DNA of 64,000 bases from an uncultured Thermoplasmatales archaeon (GTDB taxonomy: Archaea > Thermoplasmatota > E2 > DHVEG-1), in contig CAZGIV010000001.1 in assembly GCA_964526175.1 (NCBI GenBank), positions 882 through 64,881 of the forward strand. Reading direction: 5' to 3'. Under the pieces are notes generated by a model. The model worked only from the letters and a program-made list of their open reading frames with translations, did no database searches and was not told the DNA's origin. This document shows, piece by piece, positions 18,928 through 58,107 of the stretch. The stretch's first letter is position 1, and each line of letters begins with the position of its first letter. Both the position numbers and the translations under genes were made by a program.

Positions 18928-18931
18928 ATCT

Positions 18932-21141: not shown

Positions 21142-21447
21142 TTGATTAATAAGAAGGCAAATTTGTATATAAAACTTATTATCATTTAATTAAAAGAAAA
21201 ATTAATAATTGATAATATGTTAAAAAAATTTTATTAATTTGACCTAAAACATAAATATTGGCGTAATCTTTAGAATTATGATAATACGTCAAAAACGTTA
21301 TAACGGACGACTTCTATATGAATTCTTAATTGTGGGTCGAGGTTTGTTGTCAAATGGCAGTAAACGCCATAAACAGGGATCCAATAAAAAAATCAAACTA
21401 TTTCAAGAATGGAATAATTATTTTTTTTATTTTATGGGGAAGGCACC

Positions 21448-22221: not shown

Positions 22222-22223
22222 TC

Positions 22224-23870: not shown

Positions 23871-23879
23871 GGTTCTCAT

Positions 23880-24134
23880 ATGATAGAAGTAAATGAAGAT
23901 TGGTGTAAAGGCTGCAACATCTGCATTGAACGATGCCCTGTTGCAGCATTAGAAGAATCAGACACATTAAATAAAAGAGGGATACGCCCACCGAAATTAA
24001 AAAAAGTTAATGAATGTAATGATTGTCGTCTCTGTGAACTCCTTTGCCCTGACATGGCAATCATGGTAGTTCGTGGAGAAAAAAAGAAACAGCAAAAAAA
24101 GAGTTTATTACGACCAGTTGGAGGACGAAGGTAA
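23880..24134 (+). CDS. korD: 2-oxoacid:ferredoxin oxidoreductase delta subunit (2x[4Fe-4S] ferredoxin)
   Basis: CKGCNICIERCP and CNDCRLCELLCP. Immediately precedes the alpha/beta/gamma subunits. Confidence 0.65.
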   Translation: MIEVNEDWCKGCNICIERCPVAALEESDTLNKRGIRPPKLKKVNECNDCRLCELLCPDMAIMVVRGEKKKQQKKSLLRPVGGRR

Positions 24135-25316: not shown

Positions 25317-25317
25317 C

Positions 25318-26205: not shown

Positions 26206-26744
26206 AGAAAGAAATCCGAATCTGTGGTTTTGGTGGTCAGGGTGTTATTTTAGCTGGTTTTATCATTGGAAAAGCAGCAACGGTATTCATGGATTATAAT
26301 GCAGTACAAAGTCAATCCTATGGCCCAGAGGCCCGGGGAGGCGCGGCTCGCTCTGAAGTGATCATTTCTGATGAAAAAATCGGTTACCCACGTCCAATAA
26401 GCGTTGATGTGTTCGTCGCCATGTCCCAGGAGTCATTTGATGCATATCGCAATGATATCCGGGATGATACTCGTATCGTGATTGATCCTGAGCTAGTGAC
26501 GAAACATAATATTGGCCGACCCGTCTACAAAGTACATGCACAGCAAATCGCTGAGAAACTCGGTAACAAAATTGTGACCAATATCGTGATGGTCGGAGCA
26601 GCAACAAGCATCATTGATTTATTGGAGCCTGAAGCAGTGAAAAAGGCTGTCATCGACAGTGTCCCAAGTAGGTTTAAAGAAATGAATGTCATGGCATTTG
26701 AAAAGGGATTAGAGGCAGGGAACAATGCCCTCAAAGAAAAATAA
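26202..26744 (+). CDS. korC: 2-oxoacid:ferredoxin oxidoreductase gamma subunit
   Basis: ICGFGGQGVILAGFIIG is the gamma-subunit signature. Overlaps korB by 4 nt. Confidence 0.7.
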   Translation: MKKEIRICGFGGQGVILAGFIIGKAATVFMDYNAVQSQSYGPEARGGAARSEVIISDEKIGYPRPISVDVFVAMSQESFDAYRNDIRDDTRIVIDPELVTKHNIGRPVYKVHAQQIAEKLGNKIVTNIVMVGAATSIIDLLEPEAVKKAVIDSVPSRFKEMNVMAFEKGLEAGNNALKEK

Positions 26745-29700: not shown

Positions 29701-29940
29701 AATGAAGAGTTGTGTAGTGGCTGTAAGACCTGTGAACAACTGTGTGCCTATTCTGCCATTGAGATAAAACCACGGCAGAATGACCCTGAACATTTTGTTG
29801 CTACGGTAAATAAAGCACTTTGTAAGGGATGCGGCTCATGCGCAGGAGCGTGCCCGTCCGGTGCGATCGAACAGAAAGGGTTCCGGAGTAAACAAATCCA
29901 AGTCATGCTTGAAGCACTCCTTGGGGCAGGTAAAAAATGA
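26725..29940 (+). CDS. hdrA: Tandem double-HdrA fusion: an N-terminal HdrA-like FAD/ferredoxin module lacking the CHCG N-domain, joined to a complete canonical HdrA. The start may be the Met at 26752, just after the korC stop.
   Basis: First FAD fold VLIVGAGISGMQSALDIADKGY with inserted ferredoxins CTGCGDCAEVCP and CVGCGSCDRVCEP plus YCSRVCCMYA. Then the canonical HdrA N-domain RIGVFVCHCGKNI...ACSPRTH...ANIRNQCSWVH. Second FAD fold VLVIGGGISGMKAALALAEMN. C-terminal CSGCKTCEQLC...CKGCGSCAGACPSGAI. Confidence 0.7.
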   Translation: MPSKKNNQKMDHDLGIPLCDDYFFDEPEAIEQEEKMPEPASTIQKISEVVTRKKKRIIYGDVLIVGAGISGMQSALDIADKGYKVVIIDKTSTIGGAMVKLDKTFPTNDCSICTAAPKMVELARHPNIELITYAEMNKLVGKKGDFTAQIWKKSKYVDPDKCTGCGDCAEVCPVEIISPFDEKISTRKAVYIEFPQAVPIVYTVDIEKCVGCGSCDRVCEPAAISFLEKSEEIEVHAGSIIIATGFEVFEPTEIRKEYGYGKYENVLTAMQIERLLSSFGPTSGKVLRPSDYKKPKKIGWIQCVGSRSEQQGYPYCSRVCCMYATKEASIVKESNPEINITIYYMDIRAYGKDFQQYYDHAKKLGVKYVRGRPSSVYENKNKSLIVRYKDTLTGKIKEDTVDLLVLSTSIIPAKGNKKLAEIIGLEVDENGFFKQESLLENPVESSKEGVYLAGCIQGPKDIPDSVSMASGAAAKAVAPIKDRQRHIGKEFPPEKDISKEEPRIGVFVCHCGKNIAGYLDVEKVTEEVKKLPNVTHAEHVMFACSQDSGKKIKALIKEKNLNRIIVAACSPRTHGGLFQDTLLEAGLNKYLFEMANIRNQCSWVHSDDWEKATIKAIDLVKASVAKVSLLEPLSEEEFSILPSVLVIGGGISGMKAALALAEMNVKSYLIEREKELGGRLKQLNTMFPTDKKAQDIIDPLIKKVTTNKLITVMTGAELVSIEGFIGNYKGTIKQKGKKKQLGIGTIIVATGFREIDLKGEYQHKINENILSQTELEEKIKKGTLKKPKNVVIINCAGAMDEQRPYCCRIGCGVAIKNAKVISEKYPGSKIYLLYRDMRVFGKEEEEYYSNVIKNHHVTVIRYPGEKKPEVILDKKDPKKGPMKIKVYDDILEEELTLPADLVVLTVNTEGEVLTESLKNMLKIPADSAGFFLEAHAKIRPLDFATDGIYLCGAAHYPKNLVDSIAQAEGAASRAAIPIMQEKMKGEGQVAEVNEELCSGCKTCEQLCAYSAIEIKPRQNDPEHFVATVNKALCKGCGSCAGACPSGAIEQKGFRSKQIQVMLEALLGAGKK

Positions 29941-30362
29941 AGAAGAAAATTGAGAAAAACAAAAAGTTTAGTAAGATCGTATTCAAAAAAGGAGGCCTTG
30001 CCAAGGAAGTTGAAGACCTCTGTGGAGAAAATCTGTTCGGGTGCTACCAATGCGGAACATGCTCCGCGGGATGTCCCTTTGTTGATGACATGGATCTCGC
30101 ACCCGATGAAGTCATCCGATATGTTGTTCTTGATCGGTCAGAGGTCCTGAGTTCAAAGACCATTTGGTTGTGTTCCTCATGTTTCACCTGTGCTGAACGA
30201 TGTCCACGTGACATTAATATTACAAAAATTATGGAGGCACTTCGTCAGATAATTCTTCGAAAAAAAATTGATCAGAGTAATCCAATAAAAATATCAAAAA
30301 AAGAGCGAGAATCTATTCCTCAGCTCGCCTTTGTAAGCTTGTTTAGAAAAAATGTTGGATAA
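29937..30362 (+). CDS. hdrC: Heterodisulfide reductase subunit C-like (2x[4Fe-4S])
   Basis: CYQCGTCSAGCP...CSSCFTCAERCP. Overlaps the hdrA stop by 4 nt. Confidence 0.7.
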   Translation: MKKKIEKNKKFSKIVFKKGGLAKEVEDLCGENLFGCYQCGTCSAGCPFVDDMDLAPDEVIRYVVLDRSEVLSSKTIWLCSSCFTCAERCPRDINITKIMEALRQIILRKKIDQSNPIKISKKERESIPQLAFVSLFRKNVG

Positions 30363-30376
30363 AAGAACAATAAAAA

Positions 30377-31282
30377 GTGAGTAGCATGAAACTGCTCTAT
30401 TACCCCGGATGTACCCTAAAAACCTCTGCAAAAAACCTTGAGAAGACAGCAATCGAAGTCACCAAGGCTCTTGGTCATGAACTAGTGGAAATGAAAGATT
30501 GGAATTGTTGTGGCGTAGTCGCTTCACTTACTAGCGATGATCTGATGCGTCACCTTGCCCCCTTACGGAATTTAATTCACGTGGAGGACGAAGGGGAAAA
30601 CAAGGTAATAACACTGTGTGATATGTGTTGTAACACATTAAAACAAACAAATCTTCGTGTGAAAGAAAAACCTGAGGACCTCAAGACGCTTAATGCGTTT
30701 ATGGACCGGGAGAATGACTATAAAGGAACTGTTTCCGTGCTTCACTTTCTTGAATTTCTCCGAGATGAAATCGGATTTGCCACGTTGAAAAAAAAGGTAA
30801 AAAATCCTTTAAAAGGGATAAAAATAATGCCCTATTACGGGTGCATGCTACTTCGTCCACGGGAAGTAAGTATCGATGACCCAGAAGAACCAACAATTCT
30901 CAGTGACCTGCTCAGATCCCTTGGCGCTGAGACTGTCGATAATCCGTTTAAAATAGAATGTTGTGGGTCGTACAATACCGTTGAGCAAAAAGAAATTGTT
31001 TCCCGAAGAGCACATCGAATCACAAGCTTTGCACTCGACCAAGGTGCTGATGCCATCGTACTCTCCTGTCCGTTATGCCGGTTTAATCTTGACATGAGAG
31101 GAAAAGAAGCAGAGAAACTTTTCAAGGGATACAAACAAATACCGGTCTATTATTACACCCAACTAATCGCAGTTTCATTAGGGCTTGACCATAGTGTCTA
31201 TGGTTTCGACCAGCATGTGGTTGATCCAACTCTATTGTTGAAAAAAAAGGGGATTTTAGAGAGTAGAAGGATAAAAATCTAA
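30377..31282 (+). CDS. hdrB: Heterodisulfide reductase subunit B-like (two CCG domains)
   Basis: LLYYPGCTLKTSAK...NCCGVV and ...ECCGSYN... are CCG-domain signatures. Confidence 0.7.
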   Translation: MSSMKLLYYPGCTLKTSAKNLEKTAIEVTKALGHELVEMKDWNCCGVVASLTSDDLMRHLAPLRNLIHVEDEGENKVITLCDMCCNTLKQTNLRVKEKPEDLKTLNAFMDRENDYKGTVSVLHFLEFLRDEIGFATLKKKVKNPLKGIKIMPYYGCMLLRPREVSIDDPEEPTILSDLLRSLGAETVDNPFKIECCGSYNTVEQKEIVSRRAHRITSFALDQGADAIVLSCPLCRFNLDMRGKEAEKLFKGYKQIPVYYYTQLIAVSLGLDHSVYGFDQHVVDPTLLLKKKGILESRRIKI

Positions 31283-31289
31283 AAAAAAC

Positions 31290-32309
31290 ATGGTGAATGG
31301 TATGAGTAAAGAAGAAAAGAAATCTCAATCAAAAGAAACAAAGAAATTACAGCTTGCGTTTTATTGGGCAGCGAGTTGCGGGGGATGCGAAATTGCGGTG
31401 CTCGATATTAATGAAAAAATTCTTGATGTCATCGCAATTGCAGACATCCTCTTTTGGCCGGTTGCGATAGATACAAAATACAAAGACGTCGAAGCAATGG
31501 CAGATAAAAGCATTGACGTCTGTTTCTTTAATGGTGCGATTCGAACAACAGAACAAGAACATCTTGCCAACCTCCTTAGGAAAAAAGCAAAGGTGCTCGT
31601 TGCGTTTGGCGCCTGTGCAGTCAACGGGGGCATCCCTGGTCTTGCCAATGTAGCAAACAGAGAGGAAGTATTCAAGGTCGCTTATCTCGATAACCCTTCG
31701 ACAGAGAATCCAAAGAAAATCACTCCGAAAACATCTGTGAAAGTCAAGGAAGGAACATTGACTCTTCCTGAATTTTATGACACGGTAAAAAGTCTCAATC
31801 AAGTAGTTGATGTTGATTACTATCTGACTGGTTGTCCACCAACACCGGATATGATTATGACTGCTGTCGGTGCAATTGTTGAAAATAAACTTCCACCAAA
31901 AGGTTCGATTATTGCTCCCTTGAAATCGGTATGCGATGAATGTCGGTTTGAAAAATCTGAAAAGAAAATCAAGCAAATCAAACGAGTCTATGAACTCGAA
32001 AAATTCGAGGAGAAATGCCTGCTTGAACAAGGAGTCATCTGCATGGGACCTGCCACACGAGGTGGATGTAGTGCACGCTGTTTAGATGCCAATATGCCCT
32101 GCACCGGATGCGGTGGCCCAACACCTAATTCTCTTGACCAAGGAGCAAAAATGATCTCAGCACTTGCCTCGATTCTTGGGTTGGAAGGTGAAGAAAAAAT
32201 GAGCGATGAAGAGGTTGATAAATTGATTGATCAAGTCGTTGATGTCACGGGAACGTTTTATAAGTATACGTTACCAACCTCTCTTATTAACCGGAAGGTG
32301 ATAAAATGA
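31290..32309 (+). CDS. mvhG: [NiFe] hydrogenase small subunit (F420-non-reducing Mvh-type, MvhG-like)
   Basis: AASCGGCEIAVLDINEKILD is the proximal-cluster motif. C-terminal Cys clusters. Precedes the large-subunit gene with a 4-nt overlap. Confidence 0.65.
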   Translation: MVNGMSKEEKKSQSKETKKLQLAFYWAASCGGCEIAVLDINEKILDVIAIADILFWPVAIDTKYKDVEAMADKSIDVCFFNGAIRTTEQEHLANLLRKKAKVLVAFGACAVNGGIPGLANVANREEVFKVAYLDNPSTENPKKITPKTSVKVKEGTLTLPEFYDTVKSLNQVVDVDYYLTGCPPTPDMIMTAVGAIVENKLPPKGSIIAPLKSVCDECRFEKSEKKIKQIKRVYELEKFEEKCLLEQGVICMGPATRGGCSARCLDANMPCTGCGGPTPNSLDQGAKMISALASILGLEGEEKMSDEEVDKLIDQVVDVTGTFYKYTLPTSLINRKVIK

Positions 32310-33763
32310 AAACAATAACAATTGATCCAATCACACGATTGGAAGGACATGGAAAGATCAGTATCTTCCTTAATGACGAAGGAGATGTTGAAAATGCCTA
32401 TCTTCAGATCCCGGAGCTTCGGGGGTTTGAGCGGTTTTCCCAAGGACGCCGCGCAGAGGATATGCCTCAGATAACCTCTCGAATCTGCGGGGTGTGCCCT
32501 GTCGCTCATCATTTTGCTGCAACAAAAGCTCTTGATGCAGCATTTCATGTTGATCCACCCTCCGCGGCAAAGAAACTCCGAGAATTAATGTATGCCGGAT
32601 ATTTTATCTATGATCATATCCTTCATTTCTACTACTTGGGCGGACCAGATTTCGTTGTTGGACCGGATGCACCACCAGCGAAACGTAATATTATCGGTGT
32701 TATTGAGAAAGCAGGGGTAGAAATCGGAAAAGAAGTCATAAAACATCGCGCGTACGGCCAGAAAATAACAGCCATCCTTGGAGGAAAAGCGACCCATCCT
32801 GTGTGTGGTCTTCCTGGTGGTGTATCAAAATCACTGTCAAAGGAGGAAGTAAAAGACATTGAGACGATGGCAAAATCCTGTGTTGAATTCGCTAAGTTTT
32901 CCTTAAAATTATTTGATGATATCGTACTGAAAAACAAAACCTATGTTGATTTAATTCTCAGTGACCCGTATCAACTTGCGACCTACAACATGGGAATGGT
33001 CGATAAAAACAACAAAATCAATTTCTATGACGGAACCGTGCGGGTCACCGACCAAAAAGGAAAAGAGATCGTAAGATTCAACCCAGAAGAATACACTAAA
33101 CATATCGTTGAACATGTTGAAGAATGGAGTTATATAAAATTCCCCTATCTTAAGAAAATCGGATGGAAAGGCTTTATCGATGGAAAAGACAGCGGCATTT
33201 ATCGCGTTGGCCCGCTTGGTCGTTTGAACGCTTCTGAGGGAATGGCAACACCGCTTGCAGATAAGGAGTACAAAAAAATGTTTGAGACTCTTGGCGGAAA
33301 GGCAGTGAACTCAACGCTAGCGTTTCACTGGGCACGGCTCATTGAACTACTCTATGCAACGGAGCGATCTATGGAGCTGATTCAGGATCCTGAAATCACA
33401 TCGGATAAGATCCGTAACCCAGTTGGCGAACCAGGGGAAGGGGTTGGTATTGTGGAAGCAGCCCGTGGAACCCTTATTCATCATTACAAGCTTGATAAAA
33501 AAGGGTTAATCGAAAAAGCAAACCTTATTGTTGCTACCACGAACAACGCAGGTGCCATTAACATGTCGGTCAGAAACGCAGCAAAGGGAGTAATTAAGAA
33601 AGGAAACGTGAGTAACGGTATCCTCAACATGGTGGAAATGGCGTTCCGTGCCTATGATCCTTGCTTTGCGTGTGCAACCCATACACTTCCTGGTGGAATG
33701 CCCCTTGAAGTCAACATCTATGACCATAAGAAAAGTTTGTATAAGACATTTAAAAGGATGTAG
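32306..33763 (+). CDS. mvhA: [NiFe] hydrogenase large subunit (MvhA-like)
   Basis: N-terminal RLEGHGKI. RICGVCPVAHHFAA. C-terminal DPCFACATH Ni-binding motif. Confidence 0.75.
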   Translation: MKTITIDPITRLEGHGKISIFLNDEGDVENAYLQIPELRGFERFSQGRRAEDMPQITSRICGVCPVAHHFAATKALDAAFHVDPPSAAKKLRELMYAGYFIYDHILHFYYLGGPDFVVGPDAPPAKRNIIGVIEKAGVEIGKEVIKHRAYGQKITAILGGKATHPVCGLPGGVSKSLSKEEVKDIETMAKSCVEFAKFSLKLFDDIVLKNKTYVDLILSDPYQLATYNMGMVDKNNKINFYDGTVRVTDQKGKEIVRFNPEEYTKHIVEHVEEWSYIKFPYLKKIGWKGFIDGKDSGIYRVGPLGRLNASEGMATPLADKEYKKMFETLGGKAVNSTLAFHWARLIELLYATERSMELIQDPEITSDKIRNPVGEPGEGVGIVEAARGTLIHHYKLDKKGLIEKANLIVATTNNAGAINMSVRNAAKGVIKKGNVSNGILNMVEMAFRAYDPCFACATHTLPGGMPLEVNIYDHKKSLYKTFKRM

Positions 33764-33775
33764 AGGAAAACAGAG

Positions 33776-34267
33776 ATGAAGACCATTGTCTTAGGGATCG
33801 GAAATCCAATTCTTCGTGATGATGGGGCCGGGATTCATGTTGCCCATCAGCTGAAACACTACATAACAGACCAAAAAGTTACCATTGACGAGGCATACAC
33901 CGGTGGGATGAATCTTCTTGATATGATGATTGGCTACGACAAAGCAATTCTTATCGATACCGTCAACATTGCAGATGCAAAGAATGGTGAAGTAAAACGA
34001 TTGACGCTTCAGAACTCCAGTGCTACGTGTCACTCCTGCAATCCCCATGACGTCTCTCTTCAGGAAGCCCTCAGACTTGCAGAAAAACTTGGTGAAAAGA
34101 ATATTCCAAAGGAGATTATCGTAATTGGTATTGTTGTAAAAGAAATACCGATTCAGTTTGGGGAACAATTAAGTAAAAACATCCAAGCGGCAGTACCAAA
34201 AGCTGTTGAAATGACATTACTTGAATTAAAAAAAATCCAACGAAGGAGGAAAAAAGAACTAACATAA
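33776..34267 (+). CDS. Hydrogenase maturation endopeptidase (HycI/HybD/FrhD family)
   Basis: MKTIVLGIGNPILRDDGAGIHVA is the N-terminal signature of the family. Confidence 0.65.
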   Translation: MKTIVLGIGNPILRDDGAGIHVAHQLKHYITDQKVTIDEAYTGGMNLLDMMIGYDKAILIDTVNIADAKNGEVKRLTLQNSSATCHSCNPHDVSLQEALRLAEKLGEKNIPKEIIVIGIVVKEIPIQFGEQLSKNIQAAVPKAVEMTLLELKKIQRRRKKELT

Positions 34268-34291
34268 AAAAATTTGAGGTGAGCACAGAAG

Positions 34292-34723
34292 ATGAAAAAA
34301 GAATTTGAACCAAACATCATAGGCTTTCTCTGTAACTGGTGTAGTTATGCAGGAGCAGACCTTGCAGGAACCAGTCGACTGAAATACCCTTCGAATATTA
34401 AATCGATTCGGGTCATGTGTTCAGGTAGAGTCGACCCTATCTTTATTCTGGAAGCGTTAAAAAAAGGTGCTGATGGTGTTCTTGTCGCAGGATGTCATCC
34501 CGGAGATTGTCATTATCAATCAGGTAATTATAAGACAAATCGGCGAATAAAACTATTAAAGAAACTTCTTGGGGAACTCGGGGTTGAACCCGAGCGAGTA
34601 CGTTTTGAATATATCTCAGCATCAGAAGGACAGAAATTCGCTCAAGTTGTCACTGATTTTGTTGCTGAGTTAAAAAAACTTGGACCAAATCCAATTAAGG
34701 AAGAAACATGCATATCGATATAA
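34292..34723 (+). CDS. mvhD: MvhD-like hydrogenase/Hdr-associated [2Fe-2S] subunit
   Basis: IGFLCNWCSYAGADLAGTSR...IRVMCSGRVDP...GCHPGDCHY is the MvhD/FlpD signature. Confidence 0.7.
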   Translation: MKKEFEPNIIGFLCNWCSYAGADLAGTSRLKYPSNIKSIRVMCSGRVDPIFILEALKKGADGVLVAGCHPGDCHYQSGNYKTNRRIKLLKKLLGELGVEPERVRFEYISASEGQKFAQVVTDFVAELKKLGPNPIKEETCISI

Positions 34724-36138
34724 AAAAATTACAAGAAATTGTTGGGGTAGAAAACGTTCGTGATAATATCGCTGATCGCTATGTCTATGCTTCTGATGCC
34801 TCTGTTCACCGTCATCTCCCTGACATTGTTGTAAGACCAAGCACTATCGAAGAAGTCCAACATATTCTTCGCTATGCGAACGACAATAAAATCCCTGTTG
34901 TTCCCCGAGGGGCAGGATCAGGGATGTCCGGACAGACCGTCCCAATTGCAGGTGGCATTGTTCTTGATATGAAGCGAATGAACAGAATTATCGAGATACG
35001 ACCAGAAGATGTTCTCTGTAAAGTAGAACCCGGTGTGATTAACGATGAGTTAAACCGGGTGCTCAAGCCATCTGGGTTTTTCTTTCCTCCGACACCATCC
35101 TCAGGAATGATTTGTACAATCGGAGGAATGATTGGTACAAACGCGTCAGGAAACCGCTCGGTGAAATACGGTGCAACTCGCGATGCTATCTTAGGGATGA
35201 AAGTTGTTCTTGCAAACGGTGAACTCGTGACCCTTGGCTCAAATACCAGGGTTGATTCATCAGGTTATCAACTCGCCAAACTCATGGTTGGCTCCGAAGG
35301 GACGCTAGGGATTGTCGTAGAAGCGACATTATTAATATCTCCGATACCGAAATACCGGGCGATGGGAGTAGCGAATTTTTCAAGCCTTGAAGACGCAGGA
35401 CGAATGATCTCAGATACAATTGCATCAGGTATCACTCCATCCATGCTTGAACTTATGGACAATGTCGCAATCACTGCGGTGAATAACGCTCAGCATCTCG
35501 GCTTACCAGATGTTGCAGCGATCGTCATCTTTGAATGCAATGGAATGGTCAAAGAAGCAGTAGACCATGAGATGAAACGGATTTCAGAAATATGTGAAAA
35601 GCATCAGGGAACTGGAGTGAAGATAAGTGACGATCCAAAAGAGATGAAACGGATTTATGAAGGAAGACAGAAGTTGTTCCCTTCCCTTTCCCGCTACGGG
35701 GAAGGCATGGTGTCCACTGCTCTTGCAGATGATATGGCGGTCCCTATGTCAAAAATTGCTGATGCAGTTCATGAAATTCACGAGATTGCGAAACGTAATA
35801 ATGTTGTGATGAGCGCGTACGGTCATTGTGGAGCAGGATTGATTCATACAAAAATTTTGATGGATACTAATAAAAAATCCCAGTGGCAGGATGCAAAAAA
35901 AGCAGTAAAAGAAGTCTATGAGTACATCCAGGCACTCGGGGGGACCACCTCTGGTGAACATGGAATAGGGATTTCAAAAGCACCATCTTGGAAAGAAGAA
36001 AAAAAAGATTCATTAGCATTAATGAAAGCCATTAAAAAAACATTTGACCCAAATAACATCCTGAATCCTCAAAAACTTATGGATGCACCAGAAGACTGGT
36101 TGACAGCAACACCACTTCGTTATCACATGTCCGCCTAA
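34708..36138 (+). CDS. glcD: FAD-linked oxidase (GlcD/D-lactate dehydrogenase-like, PCMH-type FAD-binding)
   Basis: ...PVVPRGAGSGMSGQTVPIAGGIVLDMKRMNRIIE... is the FAD-binding PCMH domain. C-terminal GlcD-like domain. Paired with an HdrD-like CCG protein downstream. Confidence 0.65.
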   Translation: MHIDIKKLQEIVGVENVRDNIADRYVYASDASVHRHLPDIVVRPSTIEEVQHILRYANDNKIPVVPRGAGSGMSGQTVPIAGGIVLDMKRMNRIIEIRPEDVLCKVEPGVINDELNRVLKPSGFFFPPTPSSGMICTIGGMIGTNASGNRSVKYGATRDAILGMKVVLANGELVTLGSNTRVDSSGYQLAKLMVGSEGTLGIVVEATLLISPIPKYRAMGVANFSSLEDAGRMISDTIASGITPSMLELMDNVAITAVNNAQHLGLPDVAAIVIFECNGMVKEAVDHEMKRISEICEKHQGTGVKISDDPKEMKRIYEGRQKLFPSLSRYGEGMVSTALADDMAVPMSKIADAVHEIHEIAKRNNVVMSAYGHCGAGLIHTKILMDTNKKSQWQDAKKAVKEVYEYIQALGGTTSGEHGIGISKAPSWKEEKKDSLALMKAIKKTFDPNNILNPQKLMDAPEDWLTATPLRYHMSA

Positions 36139-36163
36139 ACGATCTTGTTATGAGGGAGTAATT

Positions 36164-37267
36164 GTGACAACAACAAAGAAAACATCTCATCTTCAAAAAC
36201 ATGAACAAGAAATGAACGTATGCATCAGATGCGCGTATTGTTTTGAACAATGTCCCGTTATCAGAGAAGTGCAATGGGATACTGAAGGCGCTCGTGGGAA
36301 AGTGATTCTTGCCTATGGGATTCTGACTGGTGAAATTGAACCGTCTCAGTATATCGCTGACAAGCTGTTCCGGTGCACATTCTGCCGTGATTGTTTAGAG
36401 CGATGTCCGTCAAAAGTGAAGATCCTTGAAATTATTTCCTCCGCTCGGGCGGACATGGTAGAAGCAGGATTTGCTTCTGATATACAAAATCATGTTGTTC
36501 AGAACATTCATACCACCGGGAATATCTATGGCGACAAAGAGGTCGTTTCACAAGAACGAGAAGGAAAAACTCCCTTGTTCATTGGATGTCAATATCTCGG
36601 ACGACCCAATAAAACAAAAAAATACATTAAAATCTTAGAGGAAATCGGAATCTCTCCTGTTGTGAAAAAGGAAGTGTGCTGCGGATACCCTCTAGAAGTC
36701 CTTGGGTTCAAAAAAGAGTTTACCATCCATAAAGAGCAATTCCAGAAATCTTTCCCATTTAAAGAAGCGATGACATTATGCCCAACATGCACCATATTTT
36801 TACACGAAGGACATAACATTAACGCGAAACATGTTCTACAGGTAATCAGCGAAAAAATCCCTTCTGCACACCTGAATATGAAAGTGACCTATCATGATCC
36901 CTGTGATTTTTCACGAGGGTTAAAACTTATTGAAGAACCACGAAAGATACTCAAAAAACTTGGTGTTGACGTTGTTGAGATGGAGACAAATAAGCAAAAT
37001 TCCCGGTGTTGTGGTGGAGGAGGCGGCATCCTCATGTCTGATCAATCTCTTTCAAATGATATTGCAAAAAAACGAATTCATGAAGCCTTGGACACCGGGA
37101 CAGAAATCCTTGTAACTTCCTGTCCAACGTGTGAACAGGTCCTTAAAAAAGCTGCTCAGGAAATCGGTGAAGCAGAAGGGAAGACAATGATCATTCGCAG
37201 CATTGAAGATATCATCTGGCAAGGAATTCAGGAGGCGAAAAAAAGTGCTGAAGCTACTAAAGCTTGA
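36164..37267 (+). CDS. HdrD/GlcF-like Fe-S oxidoreductase (two ferredoxin-type 4Fe-4S motifs plus two CCG domains)
   Basis: CIRCAYCFEQCP and CTFCRDCLERCP, followed by ...CCGYP... and ...CCGGGGGILM... (CCG domains). Confidence 0.65.
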   Translation: MTTTKKTSHLQKHEQEMNVCIRCAYCFEQCPVIREVQWDTEGARGKVILAYGILTGEIEPSQYIADKLFRCTFCRDCLERCPSKVKILEIISSARADMVEAGFASDIQNHVVQNIHTTGNIYGDKEVVSQEREGKTPLFIGCQYLGRPNKTKKYIKILEEIGISPVVKKEVCCGYPLEVLGFKKEFTIHKEQFQKSFPFKEAMTLCPTCTIFLHEGHNINAKHVLQVISEKIPSAHLNMKVTYHDPCDFSRGLKLIEEPRKILKKLGVDVVEMETNKQNSRCCGGGGGILMSDQSLSNDIAKKRIHEALDTGTEILVTSCPTCEQVLKKAAQEIGEAEGKTMIIRSIEDIIWQGIQEAKKSAEATKA

Positions 37268-38306
37268 TCATCTTCAAGGCCAGCAATCCATGCTTATTTT
37301 CCATGCACTCGCGCGTCTCGGGTTCGAAGGACTAGTACTAGTGTCTCCAGATATACCGTTAGCATCGATAGGATATTTCCAGGATGCAGAAAAAGAAATT
37401 GATCTTGCAGCCTGTAAAAAACTAGGGATTCCAGTGATGCGGCGGGAAGTTGGTGGTGGAGCAACCTATCTTGATCATAACCAAGTATTTTATCAACTGA
37501 TTTGGCGAAAGGGACACCTGGCGTTCCCAACTCGGGTAAAAGACATCTTCTCCGTGCTCTCACAACCAGTATGTGATACGTACCATGACTTCGGCATTGA
37601 AACACACTTCAGAGCAGAAAATGACATCATCACAAAAAACCAGCGGAAGATTGCTGGTGAAGGCGGTGGAGATATAGGCGAAAACATAGTGTTTGTTGGC
37701 GGTATTCTTCTGGATTTTGATTTTTCAACGATGAGTAAAATCCTTAAAGTTCCTGATGAAAAATTCAGGGATAAAATCTATAAAAGCATGGAAGAAAACC
37801 TTACGACGATGAAACGAGAATTAGGATACTTACCTGCTCGAGAGGAGGTAGTAACTTCTCTGGTTACAAATTTTGAACACCTTCTTGGGCCTTTGCAACC
37901 GATGATTCTTACCTCAGATGTTTTTGATAAAATGATCGAGCTTGAGCAACTATTCACCTCTGATAGATTCTTGTTTAAAAAAACCCCACGAATCCCTAAC
38001 GGTGTTAAAATCCGCGAAGGAGTCGAACTGCTCTATAGCACCTATAAAGCACGAGGAGGGTTAATTCGAACGTCCCAGGAGATTAAAGATAATATGATCC
38101 AAACAATAGGAATCTCAGGTGATTTTCAGTTCTATCCTAAATCAGAGCTGAGTGGATTGGAACAAAACCTTCAACAAACCAAACGAAAAGAACACGAATT
38201 GATTTCCAAAGTTGAGGATTTCTATCATGAAAACAAAATAGAAAGCCCAGGAGTAGAACCTGAGGATGTTTCTGATGCAATCATGGAGGCAAAAAAAAAT
38301 GATTGA
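37245..38306 (+). CDS. lplA: Lipoate-protein ligase A-like enzyme (BPL/LplA/LipB catalytic domain plus C-terminal domain). Probable GTG start at 37245 with a GGAGG SD, which overlaps the upstream gene.
   Basis: Catalytic motifs MRREVGGGATYLDHNQVF (RRxxGGGAVxHD-type) and KNQRKIAGEGGGDIGENIVFVGGILLDFD (lysine motif RK-x-AG). Confidence 0.65.
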   Translation: MLKLLKLDHLQGQQSMLIFHALARLGFEGLVLVSPDIPLASIGYFQDAEKEIDLAACKKLGIPVMRREVGGGATYLDHNQVFYQLIWRKGHLAFPTRVKDIFSVLSQPVCDTYHDFGIETHFRAENDIITKNQRKIAGEGGGDIGENIVFVGGILLDFDFSTMSKILKVPDEKFRDKIYKSMEENLTTMKRELGYLPAREEVVTSLVTNFEHLLGPLQPMILTSDVFDKMIELEQLFTSDRFLFKKTPRIPNGVKIREGVELLYSTYKARGGLIRTSQEIKDNMIQTIGISGDFQFYPKSELSGLEQNLQQTKRKEHELISKVEDFYHENKIESPGVEPEDVSDAIMEAKKND

Positions 38307-38787
38307 TTCAAAAAAATTAGATCCGAATTTTAAATATGAAGTATCTGCAGAAATTGGTGGAACAAATATTAATCGATGTTTCGCCTGTGGAACCTGTACC
38401 GCAGGATGCCCCGTCCGTGAGATTGATGAAAAATATAATCCACGAAAAATCATCCACATGGTATTGCTTGGGATGAGAGAACGTGTATTAAAAAGTGATT
38501 TCATCTGGCTCTGTTCTACCTGTTACACTTGTTATGATCGATGCCCGCAGGATGTACAATTAACCAGCATTATGACCGCATTAAAAAACATCGCGGCGCG
38601 TGAGGGATATATCCATCCGTCCTTTAAGGAACAAAACCGTCTTGTAAGCACCTTTGGACGATTATATGAAGTCGAAGATTTTGATAATAAAAAACGAGAG
38701 AAACTAGGTCTACCCCCTATACAAAAGACATTTGAAGATCTCACAAAACTTATGCATGATATGCTACCAAAAGAGGTGACGAAATGA
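38299..38787 (+). CDS. hdrC: Heterodisulfide reductase subunit C-like
   Basis: CFACGTCTAGCP...CSTCYTCYDRCP. The likely start is ATG 38299 (SD GGAGG 8 nt upstream), overlapping the lplA-like stop by 8 nt. The ORF track begins at 38266. Confidence 0.65.
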   Translation: MIDSKKLDPNFKYEVSAEIGGTNINRCFACGTCTAGCPVREIDEKYNPRKIIHMVLLGMRERVLKSDFIWLCSTCYTCYDRCPQDVQLTSIMTALKNIAAREGYIHPSFKEQNRLVSTFGRLYEVEDFDNKKREKLGLPPIQKTFEDLTKLMHDMLPKEVTK

Positions 38788-39665
38788 GATATGCACTATT
38801 CCTTGGATGTACAATCCCGGTTCGAGGGCAGAACTATGAACTGTCAGCACGTGAGGTTGCAAAAAAACTTGACATTGATTTTCTTGATGTCCCAGAATTC
38901 TCCTGCTGCGGGTTTCCCGTAAAATCATCCAATTATGAGGCGTCATTATTAATTGCAGCACGGAATTTAGCGATCGCTGCTGAAAAAAAAGAAAAAATCT
39001 GTACGTTATGTAACGCATGCACCTCGGTTCTGACTGAGGCGAATAAGGAATTGACAAAAAATAAAGAACTCAGAGAAAAAATCAACAAGGAACTTGCAAC
39101 AGTTGATAAAGAATTCAAACCAGGAGTCGAAATTAAACATTTCTCACGGATTCTTTATGAGGACATCGGCATGGATGCCATTCGAGAAAAAATTAAAACA
39201 GATCTGAGCAAACTCAGTATGTCGATTCATTACGGGTGCCATTACCTCAGACCCTCAGAATTATATGATTGTTTCGATGATGCAGAAAACCCATCGACGG
39301 TCGAAAACCTTGTGGCAGTGACGGGAGCCGCAGTCGTTGATTATAAAAACAAGTTAGATTGTTGTGGAGGAGCGATTCTTGGTGTAGAAGAAGACATCGC
39401 GTTGTCCATGGCGAAACAGAAACTCGATCATATCACCGCAAACAAGGTTGATGCATTAGTCACCATTTGTCCGTTTTGTTCAATTATGTATGAGGATAAC
39501 CAGAAGAAAATTGAAACAAAATTCAATGTGAATTATAACCTGCCGGTGTTGTATTATCCACAGGTACTTGGTCTTGCGTTAGGAGTTGATCCAAAACAAC
39601 TCGGGTTCCGACTCAATAAAGTTCGACCAACAGCAATTCTTGAAAAACTCGGGGTGACCCTGTAA
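38784..39665 (+). CDS. hdrB: Heterodisulfide reductase subunit B-like
   Basis: ALFLGCTIPVRGQNYE...SCCGFP...CCGGAILG is the CCG signature. Overlaps hdrC by 4 nt. Confidence 0.7.
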   Translation: MRYALFLGCTIPVRGQNYELSAREVAKKLDIDFLDVPEFSCCGFPVKSSNYEASLLIAARNLAIAAEKKEKICTLCNACTSVLTEANKELTKNKELREKINKELATVDKEFKPGVEIKHFSRILYEDIGMDAIREKIKTDLSKLSMSIHYGCHYLRPSELYDCFDDAENPSTVENLVAVTGAAVVDYKNKLDCCGGAILGVEEDIALSMAKQKLDHITANKVDALVTICPFCSIMYEDNQKKIETKFNVNYNLPVLYYPQVLGLALGVDPKQLGFRLNKVRPTAILEKLGVTL

Positions 39666-42600
39666 TGAAAAACTCTTCGAAATCTGGTAAAATAGGCTCA
39701 GTTCTCGTAGTTGGCGGCGGTATTGGAGGCATGCAAGCTGCCCTTGATCTCGCTGACTCCGGGTTTAAAACCTATCTGTTAGAGGAAAAACCAGCGATTG
39801 GTGGAGTCATGGCCCAACTCGATAAAACATTTCCAACCAATGATTGTTCTATGTGCATTCTTTCCCCGAAACTCGTAGATGTGGGCCGACACCCAAATAT
39901 CGATTTAATTACATATGCTGATTTGCAAGAAATCACAGGGAACAGCGGGAATTTTCAAGTGAAAATTCGTAAGAAAGCAAGTTATGTAGACTCTGAGAAA
40001 TGCACAGGGTGCGGTGAATGTGCAGAAGTCTGCCCGGTAGTTCTTGAGTCTGAGTTTGATGAAGGCTTATCCGATCGTCATGCAATCTATAAAATGTATC
40101 CTCAAGCTATTCCTAATGTCTTTACTATTGATAAAATCGGGATCCCGCCGTGCATGAATGCATGTCCGGCGAATGTGAATGTTCAGGGATACGTTGCATT
40201 GATTCGGGAGGGAAAATTCCAGGAAGCCGCGGATCTTATCCGTGAACGTAATCCATTCCCGGGAGTCTGCGGAAGGATTTGTACCCACGTCTGCGAGGAG
40301 AACTGTAATCGGAAGGAAATTGATGAAGCAGTCGCTGTTCGAGCCTTGAAACGATTTGCTGTTGATTATGAACGGCTCCATGGCCGTAAAGAGACAAAGA
40401 AAAAGAAAAAACAGGTTGAATTACGTGGACAAAACCGTAAAATAGCAGTAATCGGCTCTGGTCCTGCTGGGTTAACGGTTGCATATGATCTTGCGAGAAT
40501 GGGGTATCACCCAACTGTTTTTGAGGCACTCTCACAAGCAGGGGGAATGCTTCGGGTTGGTGTTCCGAATTATCGTTTACCACCAGAAGTCCTTGATTAT
40601 GATATTAAAATAATTCAGGAGGAAGGAGTAGAAATTCGAACGAATACTCCGATAGGTCCTGATCTGACGTTAAATGATTTACATAATGCAGGATATGAAG
40701 CTGTTTTTATTGCGATTGGGACGCATAAAAGCAAGAAACTCGGGATCGATGGTGAAGAATTAGATGGTGTTGTGCACGCAGCAGGATTCTTGCATGATCT
40801 GGGAAGTGGAAAAAAGGTTGATTACGAGGGAAAAATTGTTGCGGTTATCGGCGGAGGAAATGTTGCGATTGATTCGGTCCGAACCGCACTCCGACTGGGA
40901 GCAAAAACAGCATTTGTTATTTATCGTCGTTCTCGTACTGAAATTCCTGCGAATAAAGAGGAATTAGAAGAATGCGAGCGTGAAGGTATTTCGTTCTATT
41001 ATCTAGCTGCACCAACAAAAATCCTGGGTAAAAAAGGGAAGGTAACTGGGTTAGAATGTGTCCGAATGAAACTTGGTGAGCCTGATGATACTGGTCGGAG
41101 ACAAGCCATACCAATAGAAGGCTCAACGTTTACTCTTGATGCTGATGTGGTGATCTCAGCAATTGGCCAAGCACCGCTCTTATCCCCGCTTGCGGAAGCG
41201 GAAGTTGAGTTAGGGTTAAACAAAGAAGGTATCGTTTCTGTTCCTATTCAGAACCTTGAATTAGAAGGCGTCTATGGTTTCACCGCTTTTCTACGTGCCC
41301 TTAGCATGGGTCAGAAAATCGAAATTGGGAAAAAAGTTATTGTTGTCGGAGGGGGAAACGTTGCAATTGATGTTGCTCGGTCAGCACGACGTATCGGAGC
41401 AAAGGAAATCCACCTCATGTGCGTTGAATCCCATGAGGAGATGCCTGCATTTGATTATGAAATTGAAGAAGCAGAACAAGAAGGAATCATTATTCATACG
41501 AGACGGATGCCAAAACGAATCATCGGAGTCGGTGGTCGTGCAATTGGCGTCGAAACCCTCCAGTGTACGTCTGTGTTTGATGAAAAAGGGCGGTTTAACC
41601 CTCAGATCCGACCAAATACTGAATCAGTTATTGAAGCAGATACCATCATCGTTGCTATCGGTCAGGAAGTTGACTATACACTTCTAAAAGCAGCAGATGG
41701 TGTCCTGGTCACAAAACGTGGGTTACTCCAAGTCGATAATTTAACGTATCAAACGAATATCCCCTGGATTTTTGCTGCTGGTGATGCAGTGGTTGGACCA
41801 GGGCTTGTCATTGAAGCAATCGCGCAGGGCCATGAGGCAGCAATCTCCATTGATCGACATCTCAATGGGGAAGAACTATATGAGGGAAGACCCGGAAAAG
41901 AACATATTGTAGCCCCGAAACCTGATAAAAAATTTGAAAAAAAACCTCGGGTGACAATCCCTAAACTTGATGTTGAGAAACGTGTCGAATCTTTTGAAGA
42001 AGTAGAACTTCCGTTAACAGAGGAACAGGCTCGTCTAGAAGCTCAACGGTGTTTAAGTTGTAATTTCTGCTCAATTTGTAAACAATGTGTTGAAGCATGT
42101 GAAGCAGACGCAATCGATCATGATATGAGTGAAAAAATCATTGAACTGAATGTTGGATCAGTGATTTTTGCACCAGGATATGAATTATTTGATGCAACAT
42201 TGAAAAGCGAATATGGGTATGGACGATATAGAAACGTGCTCACATCACTTGAGTTTGAACGAATCCTGTCTGCATCAGGACCATACGCTGGCCATGTGGT
42301 CCGACCGTCTGACCAGAAAGAACCACGAAAAATAGCGTGGATACAATGCGTTGGATCACGTGATAACGCTTGTGGGAAAAATTATTGTTCATCGGTCTGT
42401 TGTACATACGCGATTAAAGAAGCAGTCATAGCAAAAGAACACGCACCCAACATTCAACCAACCATTTTTTATATGGATATGCGCACCTACGGGAAAGGCT
42501 TTGAATCATACTATAATCGCGCGGAAAAAGAATACGGTGTCAGATTTGTCCGATGTCGTATCTCCTCAGTCGAAGAGGATAAAAAAACCAAGAATCTCTC

Positions 42601-44701: not shown

Positions 44702-45130
44702 ATGACTGAGCGATTTGAACCATCGATTCTTGCATTTTTGTGTAACTGGTGCAGTTATGCAGGAGCAGATCTTGCTGGTACTAGCCGGATGCAGTACCCG
44801 ACGAATGTGAAAATAATTCGGGTGATGTGCTCTGGTCGGGTGAATCCTTCCTTTGTGTTAAATGCGATGCAGAGTGGTATTGATGGTGTTATTATTGGAG
44901 GATGTCATCCAGGGGAATGTCACTACAACCAGGGGAATTATCTCACACGACGTCGTATTACTCTGCTCAAACTGCTCCTAGAATACGTCGGGATTGACCC
45001 TCGTCGTGTTCAAATGACCTGGGTGTCTGCTTCCGAAGGTGGTAAATTTGCTGAGGTGATGAAAAAGGTTACTGAGGAGATTCGAAAGCTTGGTCCCATT
45101 CAGCAAATAAAAAGGAGTAATGAATGGTAG
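44702..45130 (+). CDS. mvhD: MvhD-like [2Fe-2S] subunit (second copy)
   Basis: ILAFLCNWCSYAGADLAGTSR...IRVMCSGRVNP...GCHPGECHY. Confidence 0.7.
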   Translation: MTERFEPSILAFLCNWCSYAGADLAGTSRMQYPTNVKIIRVMCSGRVNPSFVLNAMQSGIDGVIIGGCHPGECHYNQGNYLTRRRITLLKLLLEYVGIDPRRVQMTWVSASEGGKFAEVMKKVTEEIRKLGPIQQIKRSNEW

Positions 45131-46077: not shown

Positions 46078-46085
46078 GTGAATGA

Positions 46086-54544: not shown

Positions 54545-54561
54545 AGTGTTATTTCAACCTC

Positions 54562-55392: not shown

Positions 55393-55410
55393 GGTTGCCT
55401 GTTGTATAGG

Positions 55411-57216: not shown

Positions 57217-57221
57217 ACATC

Positions 57222-58103: not shown

Positions 58104-58107
58104 GCAC

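Follow-up and report, generated by a model that had tools for sequence, protein, structure and literature searches.

A racemase-linked GlcD/HdrD dehydrogenase module with a putative lipoyl redox carrier in an uncultured Thermoplasmatales archaeon

In Desulfovibrio, glcD and a gene for a CCG-domain iron-sulfur protein make up the two-subunit D-lactate dehydrogenase known from sulfate reducers. Pairs of a GlcD-family flavoprotein and a protein resembling the heterodisulfide reductase (Hdr) subunit HdrD have been proposed in Bathyarchaeia, Methanomethylicia, Korarchaeia and Archaeoglobus (PMC6421429, PMC10667645, PMC3949148). Such HdrD/GlcD pairs and Hdr-like complexes are widespread in uncultured anaerobes without coenzyme M (CoM), coenzyme B (CoB) or methyl-coenzyme M reductase (MCR), and the disulfide used by Hdr in these organisms has repeatedly been called unknown in genome papers (PMC10667645, PMC9723716), with GcvH raised in passing as a possible disulfide carrier for HdrB in Culexarchaeia (PMC9723716). 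For the LarA superfamily of racemases, COG0277 and COG0247 proteins have been tabulated, without interpretation, as neighbours of several LarA groups, and the in vivo function of malate racemases is an open question (PMC7583248). Here we analyse 64 kb of DNA (henceforth the window) from an uncultured Thermoplasmatales archaeon (contig CAZGIV010000001.1), in which adjacent plus-strand genes for a GlcD-like and an HdrD-like protein (34708-37267) lie in a long string of Hdr and Mvh genes; the analysis of this genome was confined to the window.

Judged from its domains and conserved residues, the pair near certainly encodes the two subunits of an NAD-independent dehydrogenase for D-2-hydroxyacids, of the type that combines GlcD with a CCG iron-sulfur protein. 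We found that it belongs to a conserved, horizontally exchanged module that also comprises a LarA-family racemase, a GcvH-like protein, a lipoate-protein ligase (LplA), often a class I fumarase, and MvhD/Hdr proteins; the inclusion of LarA is well supported. Our overall reading, in which we place about as much belief as doubt, is that the module would be a D-hydroxyacid dehydrogenase fed by a racemase, with a lipoyl carrier as its redox partner.

The GlcD/HdrD pair and its conserved neighbours

A preliminary description of the window had proposed a GlcD-family flavin adenine dinucleotide (FAD) oxidase at 34708, followed by an HdrD/GlcF-type protein with two 4Fe-4S and two CCG domains, the pair lying inside an Hdr/Mvh array, and a LarA-family gene at 12207-13475. 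All of these assignments stand: both open reading frames (ORFs) of the pair have exactly the boundaries it gave, and flanking MvhD, HdrC, HdrB and HdrA proteins were found with Pfam. The first gene (34708-36138, plus strand; 476 amino acids, aa) encodes a FAD- and metal-dependent D-2-hydroxyacid dehydrogenase subunit of the GlcD/LctD family, with the FAD_binding_4 (5.9e-48) and FAD-oxidase_C (4.6e-60) domain pair typical of GlcD (VAO/PCMH) proteins. Its best match in PDB was LctD of the Acetobacterium Ldh/Etf complex (7qh2_C, 9.6e-80), and other solved relatives were glycolate oxidase (9qgz), mouse LDHD and human D-2-hydroxyglutarate dehydrogenase (D2HGDH). The active site is intact: the ligands of the lactate moiety and of the metal (R320, H373, H380, E417 and H418, corresponding to R386, H434, H441, E475 and H476 of human D2HGDH) were invariant across 101 homologues, which we aligned with LctD, LDHD and D2HGDH. 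NCBIfam assigned no substrate to this subunit, all scores being under their cut-offs (top match TIGR00387 glcD, 404.6 vs. 567.9), and close homologues were labelled as Thermoplasmata or Thermoplasmatota archaeon.

The same protein carries a C-terminal extension (residues 459-472; 36082-36123 in the window) that is missing from canonical GlcD, LctD, LDHD and D2HGDH. Four of its residues (W464, T468, R471 and Y472) are invariant in the clades linked to the module, and R471-Y472 is also kept in the GlcD class with 45-52% identity; the extension might help to dock the CCG subunit, or extend as far as the active site.

The second gene (36164-37267, plus strand; 367 aa) encodes an HdrD/GlcF-type iron-sulfur subunit with two Pfam CCG domains and one Fer4_8 domain (4Fe-4S dicluster). 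Its 18 Cys residues include two ferredoxin-type [4Fe-4S] motifs (CX2CX2CX3C at residues 20-30 and 71-81) and two complete five-Cys CCG sets (C142/C172/C173/C206/C209 and C247/C282/C283/C320/C323), i.e., the layout of methanogen HdrD, the CCG sets being sites for non-cubane clusters like those of HdrB; its PDB matches were HdrB and HdrC chains. NCBIfam placed it in no family, as all scores were under cut-offs, the best match being TfrB (146 bits, cut-off 385). The window ORFs of 110 aa and more, the set examined for a NarI/HdrE-like membrane partner, included none, whether beside the pair or further away. Natural fusions of GlcD and HdrD, 831-913 aa long, occur elsewhere (loci L127 12066-14567, L130 11908-14403, L139 11743-14247 and L145 11700-14441); their GlcD parts are 46-49% identical to the window protein, and each fusion directly follows the GcvH-like and LarA genes.

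To quantify which genes accompany the dehydrogenase, we scanned species-representative genomes with a GlcD alignment, which gave 80 loci with 82% to 36% identity, and searched their neighbourhoods by tblastn with the window's own proteins. Related loci (at least 41% identity; n = 32) were compared with 48 lower-identity loci of canonical type (group D, at most 40%). LarA was found near GlcD in 14/32 related loci and in 1/48 controls (Fisher p = 3.5e-6), MvhD in 12/32 vs. 0/48 and LplA in 6/32 vs. 0/48. Relatives in which the LarA gene immediately adjoins that of GlcD belong to several phyla. A reciprocal scan of metagenomes, seeded with GcvH-like proteins alone and counting loci of at least 8 kb with GcvH identity of at least 60% (n = 22), recovered LarA in 14 loci, GlcD in 12 and HdrD in 9, with the GlcD start 16-3490 bp from GcvH and usually LarA alone between them. 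The suggestion in the preliminary description that LarA is a functional partner of the pair thus gained support from both censuses. Adjacency of GcvH to GlcD is frequent and not universal.

Individual loci show how the same parts are arranged in different hosts. Orthologues with 64-76% identity (68-76% for the GlcD-like protein) were found in L007, L009 and L011. In L007, from a bacterium with sigma-54 regulators, citrate lyase, two Ldh_1 genes, LarA, GlcD, fumarase alpha and beta, an HdrD-like protein, LplA, a CMD protein and GcvH lie in this order, and no HdrABC genes were found near the module. The WOR-3 bacterium (L009) has, in order, HdrC, HdrB, HdrA-MvhD, MvhG, MvhA, GcvH, LarA, GlcD and an HdrD-like protein. 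The second archaeal locus (L011) has GcvH immediately before the series GlcD, HdrD, LplA, HdrC, HdrB and HdrA/GltD. The Cloacimonadota locus (L018) includes SucCD, fumarase and Ldh_1 genes, and a 138-aa ORF behind its HdrD is not GcvH-like. In Desulfobacterota (L036 9989-16797; L052 6338-15600) the order is LarA, a fusion of multihaem cytochrome c and NarI, GlcD, an HdrD-like protein, GcvH, a second HdrD/DsrK-like protein, a NarI/HdrE/DsrM-like membrane protein and LplA. The layout of the window, i.e., Frd, SucCD, GcvH facing fumarase, acyl-CoA dehydrogenase and LarA, is retained in its closest relatives (L093-L095 and L103).

Overall, the module is distributed over Thermoplasmatota, WOR-3, Cloacimonadota and Desulfobacterota. 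Archaeal and bacterial copies of its proteins are 52-73% identical and stand in varying gene orders, which fits a unit that has been exchanged and kept together by selection. In the window the module is split, with GlcD, HdrD and LplA in the Hdr/Mvh operon, and LarA, fumarase and GcvH 17-22 kb upstream. A variant was found in Desulfobacterales (L072 9995-13697, as well as L020-L023, L026 and L042), where GlcD, at 62-64% identity to the window protein, precedes a 323-aa fusion of polyferredoxin and MvhD that stands in place of HdrD, and LarA comes next, with a GntR/FCD regulator and a Na+/H+ exchanger-like gene downstream. Since L072 comes from the cultured Desulfamplus magnetovallimortis, this variant is experimentally accessible.

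The lipoate ligase, the GcvH-like protein and the electron acceptor

Two genes that the preliminary description did not mention bear on where the electrons of the dehydrogenase might go. The first (37245-38306, plus strand; 353 aa), whose start overlaps the HdrD stop by 23 nt, encodes a lipoate-protein ligase with an LplA catalytic domain (LplA-B_cat, 3.1e-33) and an LplB-like C-terminal domain (Lip_prot_lig_C). It matches PDB entry 6jom and conserves K135 of the RKIAG motif, while for all NCBIfam ligase models this LplA-type protein scored under their cut-offs. Its orthologue adjoins GlcD/HdrD in L007, L011, L025, L121, L139 and L145 and in the Desulfobacterota loci.

The second gene (16963-17397, minus strand; 144 aa), located between SucCD and fumarase and 3.5 kb from LarA, encodes a GcvH-like lipoyl carrier protein (Pfam GCV_H). 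Its K70, in the motif S-A-K-W-V-G-K, aligns to the lipoyl-Lys of solved GcvH structures; the clade as a whole has SxKW(V/L)GK at this position, unlike the canonical ESVK(A/S), and the protein barely clears the NCBIfam gcvH model (TIGR00527; 124.2 vs. 115.85). An E. coli GcvH outgroup sequence served solely to illustrate the canonical lipoyl motif. Domains of GcvT and GcvP were found neither in the window nor in the genes called for L007, L009 and L011, where orthologues of the GcvH-like gene lie beside LarA, GlcD and HdrD, as they do in many metagenome loci. Two small minus-strand ORFs adjoin the gene in the window: directly downstream, a 75-aa ORF for a dodecin, i.e., a small protein that binds flavin (16593-16820; NCBIfam dodecin models 57 and 55 bits, under cut-offs), and, between the GcvH-like gene and SucD, a 140-aa ORF (17471-17893) with no Pfam or NCBIfam match, which is kept in place among the closest relatives (96% identity in L093, 68% in L096).

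The GcvH-like protein lacks the N-terminal Cys of the strictly conserved pair in LbpA of sulfur oxidisers; its Cys residues, which vary across the clade, stand only before the lipoyl-Lys and at EDDC. No sulfur-transferase domains (DsrE, TusA, rhodanese) were found among the window ORFs. On these two grounds, sulfur oxidation of the LbpA/sHdr kind was rejected.

We propose lipoamide as the acceptor because LplA and the GcvH-like lipoyl protein are conserved together with the pair. A role of the GcvH-like protein as lipoyl carrier is, in our estimate, possible, and at best evenly poised between true and false. In the Desulfobacterota loci the lipoyl protein sits between two CCG proteins, and this version looks like a soluble dehydrogenase and a membrane-bound, quinone-linked CCG complex sharing one common lipoyl carrier. 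The broader idea that lipoamide on a dedicated GcvH-like protein would be the dithiol/disulfide of HdrD/HdrB CCG enzymes in non-methanogenic archaea and bacteria, coupling a racemase-fed D-malate/oxaloacetate or D-lactate/pyruvate dehydrogenase to Hdr/Mvh bifurcation, is one we put forward tentatively, as less likely true than not.

Several observations speak against the lipoyl carrier. GcvH was found near GlcD in 4/32 related loci vs. 1/48 controls, a difference that was not significant, and in 0/16 loci of the closest GlcD group; in the window it lies 17 kb away from the pair and on the opposite strand. A distant subgroup of the GcvH clade is found in GcvH-LplA-radical SAM clusters without CCG genes, so that the carrier could be a general lipoylation or relay protein. 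The Desulfobacterales variant has GlcD, the polyferredoxin-MvhD fusion and LarA, and both the CCG protein and GcvH are absent from it, meaning that the electron output can be pure iron-sulfur wiring. Furthermore, enzymes that reduce no disulfide, such as GlcF, GlpC and SdhE, have CCG domains too, and the step from a hydroxyacid (about -170 to -190 mV) to lipoamide (-290 mV) is uphill.

The distant GcvH subgroup itself is represented by L157 (9995-12645) and by L143, L146, L151, L152, L156, L158, L160, L162, L165, L167, L168 and L170. Its GcvH proteins have 52-59% identity, and the gene behind them encodes a different LplA (27-30% identity). In L157, the one locus of this kind checked with Pfam, a radical SAM gene comes next and CCG or GlcD genes are not nearby. 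Clusters of this type are probably self-contained lipoyl-protein assembly systems.

Some of these points favour another explanation, which we consider doubtful: that no thiol shuttle is involved and GlcD/HdrD docks directly, via MvhD and iron-sulfur centres, onto HdrA in the manner of MvhAG or FdhAB. The hydroxyacid/oxoacid couple would then be the high-potential partner of bifurcation, while LplA and GcvH would have their part in ordinary lipoylation, be it for glycine cleavage or for a lipoyl relay, and would adjoin the pair for unrelated reasons. Beyond the variant without CCG protein and the GcvH-clade members whose sole companions are LplA and a radical SAM gene, this is favoured by MvhD, whose gene in the window (34292-34723, plus strand; FlpD 3.7e-58, for a [2Fe-2S] electron-transfer protein of MvhD type) shares 16 nt with the start of the GlcD gene and which was the most enriched neighbour after LarA. 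That the GcvH-like protein passes the NCBIfam gcvH model, and that its adjacency is not universal, also fit. However, GcvH and LplA accompany GlcD/HdrD repeatedly, in different phyla and in altered gene orders, GcvH lies between two CCG proteins in Desulfobacterota, no gcvT or gcvP stands beside any examined GcvH copy and the clade has its own lipoyl-Lys motif. Finally, both CCG Cys sets are fully conserved, which a pure electron wire would not need.

The racemase and the substrate of the dehydrogenase

The LarA homologue (12207-13475, plus strand; 422 aa; Lar_N 1.1e-56, LarA_C) is predicted to be a nickel-pincer racemase with a signature like that of malate racemase. In PDB it matched Mar2 best (6d6z, 4.1e-64; LarA 1.9e-44), and in NCBIfam it scored 381 bits with LarAH6 (cut-off 500) and 287 bits with LarA (cut-off 460). 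Its catalytic residues (D69, H102, H169 and K293; D72, H108, H174 and K298 in Lactiplantibacillus plantarum LarA) and cofactor-binding residues (R72, K179 and H195; R75, K184 and H200) are all conserved. We did not find larB, larC or larE, or a lactate permease, in the window.

Three specificity sites have been defined for the LarA superfamily by Desguin et al. (PMC7583248). In the window protein these read HYF, Q-K (Q292) and G-Y-H-K350. The residues specific to lactate racemase (F175-F176, V297 and W358) are not found here, their places being taken by Y-F, Q292 and K350, whereas two of the three Mar2 sites (Y172-K173, Q293, K351) agree, namely Q-K and H-K350; the homologue is thus of Mar2 type at two of three sites. 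This combination is general among about 30 LarA proteins of the module, all of which have H-Y-F in the loop (Mar2 H-Y-K; LarA H-F-F), Q before the catalytic Lys (Mar2 Q; LarA V) and G-(Y/W)-H-K at the third site (Mar2 K351; LarA W358).

The pocket of the dehydrogenase was compared with solved structures by alignment, which is the sole basis of our statements on its substrate. Human D2HGDH binds the distal carboxylate through T390, K401, Y432 and N443 (PMC7801405); the corresponding residues of the window clade are F324, A340, Y371 and K382. Of these, K382 and Y371 were invariant (38/38) in the two GlcD classes paired with a Mar-like racemase, while canonical GlcD has N and F, respectively. By contrast, a Desulfobacterota subclade combines a racemase of lactate type (H-F/M-Y, S-K, D-Q-W) with a dehydrogenase that has Q/N and F at the two positions. 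In these alignments, the specificity residues of racemase and dehydrogenase covary.

The genes around the racemase and the GcvH-like gene point to C4-dicarboxylates. Two plus-strand genes encode class I fumarate hydratase alpha (15171-16031; Fumerase, 8.1e-98) and beta (16032-16577; Fumerase_C), and fumarase genes lie in or beside the GlcD/HdrD/LarA cluster in L007, L018, L032, L120 and L121. Further along, Pfam identified SucD and SucC (18058-20056, minus strand), a TrmB-family regulator (within 18058-23870) and the iron-sulfur and flavoprotein subunits of a fumarate reductase/succinate dehydrogenase-like (Frd/Sdh-like) enzyme (21448-23870, plus strand), with the SucCD/Frd layout repeated in L093-L095. 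A C4 context thus accompanies the module in three lineages: the window (fumarase, SucCD, Frd/Sdh-like subunits and a 2-oxoacid:ferredoxin oxidoreductase of 2-oxoglutarate type), L007 and L018.

Right behind the LarA stop codon starts an acyl-CoA dehydrogenase gene (13476-14684, plus strand; Acyl-CoA_dh N, M and C domains), which is kept beside LarA in the closest relatives (L093-L095, L103). Divergent from LarA and separated from it by 84 bp, a minus-strand set (8981-12123) encodes a 496-aa FAD oxidoreductase of DAO type that includes a BFD-like [2Fe-2S] domain, a 422-aa Pyr_redox_2 protein and a DUF1667 protein, with an AsnC-type regulator adjoining; we take this set to resemble anaerobic glycerol-3-phosphate dehydrogenase-like or proline dehydrogenase-like clusters.

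D-malate is likelier than D-lactate given the Mar2-like racemase signature, the invariant pocket Lys and the C4 neighbours. We favour D-malate, or a close dicarboxylate, as the candidate substrate with roughly balanced conviction, D-lactate being a possible one. The presence of a racemase would be explained by fumarase yielding L-malate while GlcD-family enzymes are D-specific. Three residues weaken the case for a dicarboxylate: the LarA loop is H-Y-F and not the H-Y-K of Mar2, the equivalent of D2HGDH Lys401 is missing (A340), and the position of Thr390 holds a large hydrophobic residue (F324), as in D-lactate dehydrogenases.

The preliminary description had proposed that lactate or another 2-hydroxyacid is oxidised with electrons passed to a disulfide. 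Its enzyme type, a D-2-hydroxyacid dehydrogenase, and its Hdr context are borne out, while lactate as substrate and a heterodisulfide as acceptor are probably not right. In its specific form, i.e., D-lactate (and L-lactate via LarA) oxidised by GlcD/HdrD and a disulfide of the CoM-S-S-CoB kind, or one of low molecular weight, handled by HdrABC/Mvh, this is a common metagenomic hypothesis, published for the four archaeal groups named at the outset, that we hold to be improbable here. The nearest solved relatives of the FAD subunit are indeed lactate dehydrogenases (LctD, LDHD), the pocket is hydrophobic and small at the Thr390 and Lys401 positions, as in D-lactate dehydrogenases, and the Desulfobacterota version of the module has the lactate-type racemase signature. 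Yet the window racemase has the Mar2-type Q-K and HK sites without equivalents of V297 and W358, its partner clade has the invariant K382, and the neighbourhood is one of C4-dicarboxylates with no lactate permease in the window. As to the acceptor, every HdrB and HdrC copy in the window scored under the cut-offs of the CoB-CoM (methanogen) Hdr families and no methanogenesis genes were found among the window ORFs; the sub-cut-off scores agree with a thiol substrate other than CoM or CoB. The conserved LplA and GcvH genes would also be left unexplained.

A D-2-hydroxyglutarate dehydrogenase is unlikely: an upstream oxidoreductase of 2-oxoglutarate type would suit it, but no counterpart of Lys401 is present (A340), and an Hgr-type signature is missing from the racemase. 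An ordinary glycolate oxidase or dehydrogenase (GlcD plus GlcF), as in the automatic annotation of the Joint Genome Institute (JGI), is hardly credible and was rejected, as the source label 'glycolate oxidase', the top NCBIfam match (TIGR00387 glcD) and the FAD plus CCG iron-sulfur architecture are set against sub-cut-off scores for both GlcD and GlcF (NF008434, 75.4 vs. 333), the lack of GlcE or any second FAD_binding_4 gene adjoining the pair, the near absence of LarA, LplA and MvhD from canonical-type GlcD loci, and the achirality of glycolate, with which a conserved adjacent racemase makes no sense.

Surrounding genes, proposed electron flow and described systems

The pair is part of a plus-strand gene string (24135-52473), the first part of which (24135-34267; Pfam) runs from three genes of a 2-oxoacid:ferredoxin oxidoreductase through a 1071-aa HdrA-like protein, HdrC, HdrB, MvhG and MvhA to a HycI protease, followed by MvhD. 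The oxidoreductase (alpha, beta and gamma subunits, 24135-26744, plus strand; Pfam and NCBIfam) passes the NCBIfam 2-oxoacid:acceptor oxidoreductase model with its alpha subunit, and by NCBIfam scores its subunits are nearer to 2-oxoglutarate-type models than to PorA. Behind GlcD, HdrD and the ligase comes a second Hdr module (38299-44632, plus strand; Pfam) of HdrC-like (38299-38787; NCBIfam HdrC 125.7 bits, cut-off 160), HdrB-like (38784-39665; HdrB 278.8 bits, cut-off 345) and a 1655-aa fusion of HdrA with a GltD/NfnB-like part (39665-44632; Pfam). This order, i.e., GlcD, HdrD, (LplA), HdrC, HdrB and a large HdrA fusion, is kept in L011, L013, L014 and L025, and an identical gene order was found on six other independent metagenome contigs. 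The string ends with MvhD, two iron-sulfur proteins, a DHODB-type flavoprotein and a 1511-aa HdrA/GltD-like fusion. Scanning 23500-40000 for promoters and terminators gave 33 and 16 hits against shuffled expectations of 33.2 and 14.0, respectively, with models that do not cover archaeal promoters.

The two large plus-strand flavoproteins (39665-44632, 1655 aa; 47938-52473, 1511 aa) combine HdrA-like and GltD/NfnB-like (Fer4_20 plus Pyr_redox_2) parts with C-terminal ferredoxin domains, the L011 counterpart (1726 aa) including MvhD as well, while the 1071-aa protein (26725-29940, plus strand) is a double HdrA-like protein. Together, these three large HdrA-type flavoproteins hint at Hdr modules with a link to NAD(P)H. 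The minus strand (52484-56451) encodes a four-subunit, sulfhydrogenase-like [NiFe] hydrogenase, and an iron-sulfur and DHODB-type pair inside the Hdr operon (45124-47941, plus strand) is paralogous to its subunits. A third HdrC-HdrB-HdrA set followed by OsmC lies at 56689-60543. At the other end of the window (2422-7996, plus strand) are two transglutaminase-core proteins, a hexapeptide transferase, a ThiF-family E1-like protein and two weakly thioredoxin/redoxin-like proteins, with no evident link to the module.

Considering these components, the lipoyl-carrier reading can be laid out as follows. Fumarase would produce or consume L-malate, and the racemase would swap L- and D-malate for a dehydrogenase that, like other GlcD-family enzymes, would be D-only. 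GlcD/HdrD would interconvert D-malate and oxaloacetate, with electrons passing through FAD, two [4Fe-4S] clusters and the CCG site, where they would be exchanged with the lipoyl dithiol/disulfide on the GcvH-like protein, itself lipoylated by the co-encoded ligase. The carrier would join the dehydrogenase to the HdrBC/HdrA modules, whose HdrB/C-type subunits would use the same lipoyl group, and through them to Mvh hydrogenase and the GltD-like NAD(P)H sites. Protein-bound lipoamide would thus fill the place that CoM-S-S-CoB has in methanogens.

Electrons could flow in either the reductive or the oxidative direction. The standard potentials (E0') of oxaloacetate/malate and pyruvate/lactate are about -170 mV and -190 mV, and those of H2, ferredoxin and NAD(P)H are -414 mV, about -450 to -500 mV and -320 mV, respectively. 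For lipoamide, an E0' of -290 mV has been given (PMC6067878). In the reductive direction, Mvh/Hdr would bifurcate electrons from H2 to ferredoxin and lipoamide, and dihydrolipoamide would reduce oxaloacetate, with all steps downhill; this would feed a C4 branch to succinyl-CoA and 2-oxoglutarate that needs reduced ferredoxin, which fits the genes of the window. In the oxidative direction, electrons from malate and reduced ferredoxin would yield H2 or NAD(P)H, with confurcation pulling the lipoamide step in analogy to Ldh/Etf. That step would be about as uphill as the reaction of an NAD-dependent malate or lactate dehydrogenase, and the HdrA/GltD fusions would fit this direction. In Desulfobacterota, a quinone-reducing, HdrDE-like complex could supply the pull.

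If true, this would answer what Hdr reduces in organisms without coenzymes M and B, for which protein-bound lipoamide is a concrete candidate that can be checked with four recombinant proteins. It would also suggest a role for malate racemases, which would connect the L-malate of fumarase with an NAD-independent dehydrogenase that takes only the D-form and can be joined to electron bifurcation. Should the lipoyl link prove wrong, the locus is one more case of the known HdrD/GlcD pair.

A full-text literature search found no published GlcD/HdrD-LplA-GcvH-LarA module, for GcvH together with HdrD it gave a single, unrelated paper, and a paper on Thermoprofundales (PMC9585477) nowhere mentions Hdr, Mvh, lactate, GlcD or lipo-. 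Among described systems, the locus resembles archaeal HdrD/GlcD pairs and the D-lactate dehydrogenase from sulfate reducers in that a FAD subunit of the GlcD family precedes a two-CCG iron-sulfur protein, in the proposed thiol/disulfide acceptor and in occurring in non-methanogens too. It differs from them in its malate-racemase-like LarA, ligase, GcvH-like carrier and pocket K382, in having a C4-dicarboxylate context instead of lactate permease, pta or ack, and in that gene context suggests a protein-bound lipoamide acceptor. LctBCD of Acetobacterium woodii (7qh2) includes the nearest solved relative, LctD, and likewise couples a hydroxyacid oxidation at about -190 mV to reduced ferredoxin, but here the coupling partner would be of Hdr type (HdrA flavin, CCG, GltD-like NAD(P)H domain, Mvh), with no etf genes. 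With Mar2 of Thermoanaerobacterium thermosaccharolyticum (LarAH6; 6d6z; PMC7583248) the racemase has in common the catalytic and cofactor residues, the Gln before the catalytic Lys and the Lys351 equivalent, while its loop after the catalytic His is Y-F and not Y-K and its LarAH6 score is under the cut-off.

In methanogens, TfrAB together with MvhADG-HdrABC reduces a C4-dicarboxylate with a thiol pool that Hdr/Mvh regenerates, and TfrB is the top NCBIfam match of our CCG subunit, albeit far under the cut-off; there, however, the partner is of SdhA type, here of GlcD type, and in place of CoM-SH and CoB-SH the thiol here would be a lipoyl protein. The sHdr-LbpA/sLpl(AB) systems (PMC6067878, PMC10332631) likewise link CCG-containing Hdr-like proteins to a GcvH-like lipoyl protein and its own ligase, with lipoamide as the proposed acceptor, and the same linkage is seen here, with LplA in the Hdr operon, a GcvH-like gene in the window and both recurring in relatives. 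Unlike those systems, the window has no DsrE, TusA or rhodanese genes and its carrier no N-terminal LbpA Cys, the partner would be a hydroxyacid dehydrogenase, and the host is an anaerobic sediment archaeon with Mvh hydrogenase. HdrD/GlcD pairs, two-subunit D-lactate dehydrogenases and sHdr with lipoate-binding proteins are known already, and it is the combination of GlcD/HdrD with LplA, GcvH and LarA for which we found no earlier description.

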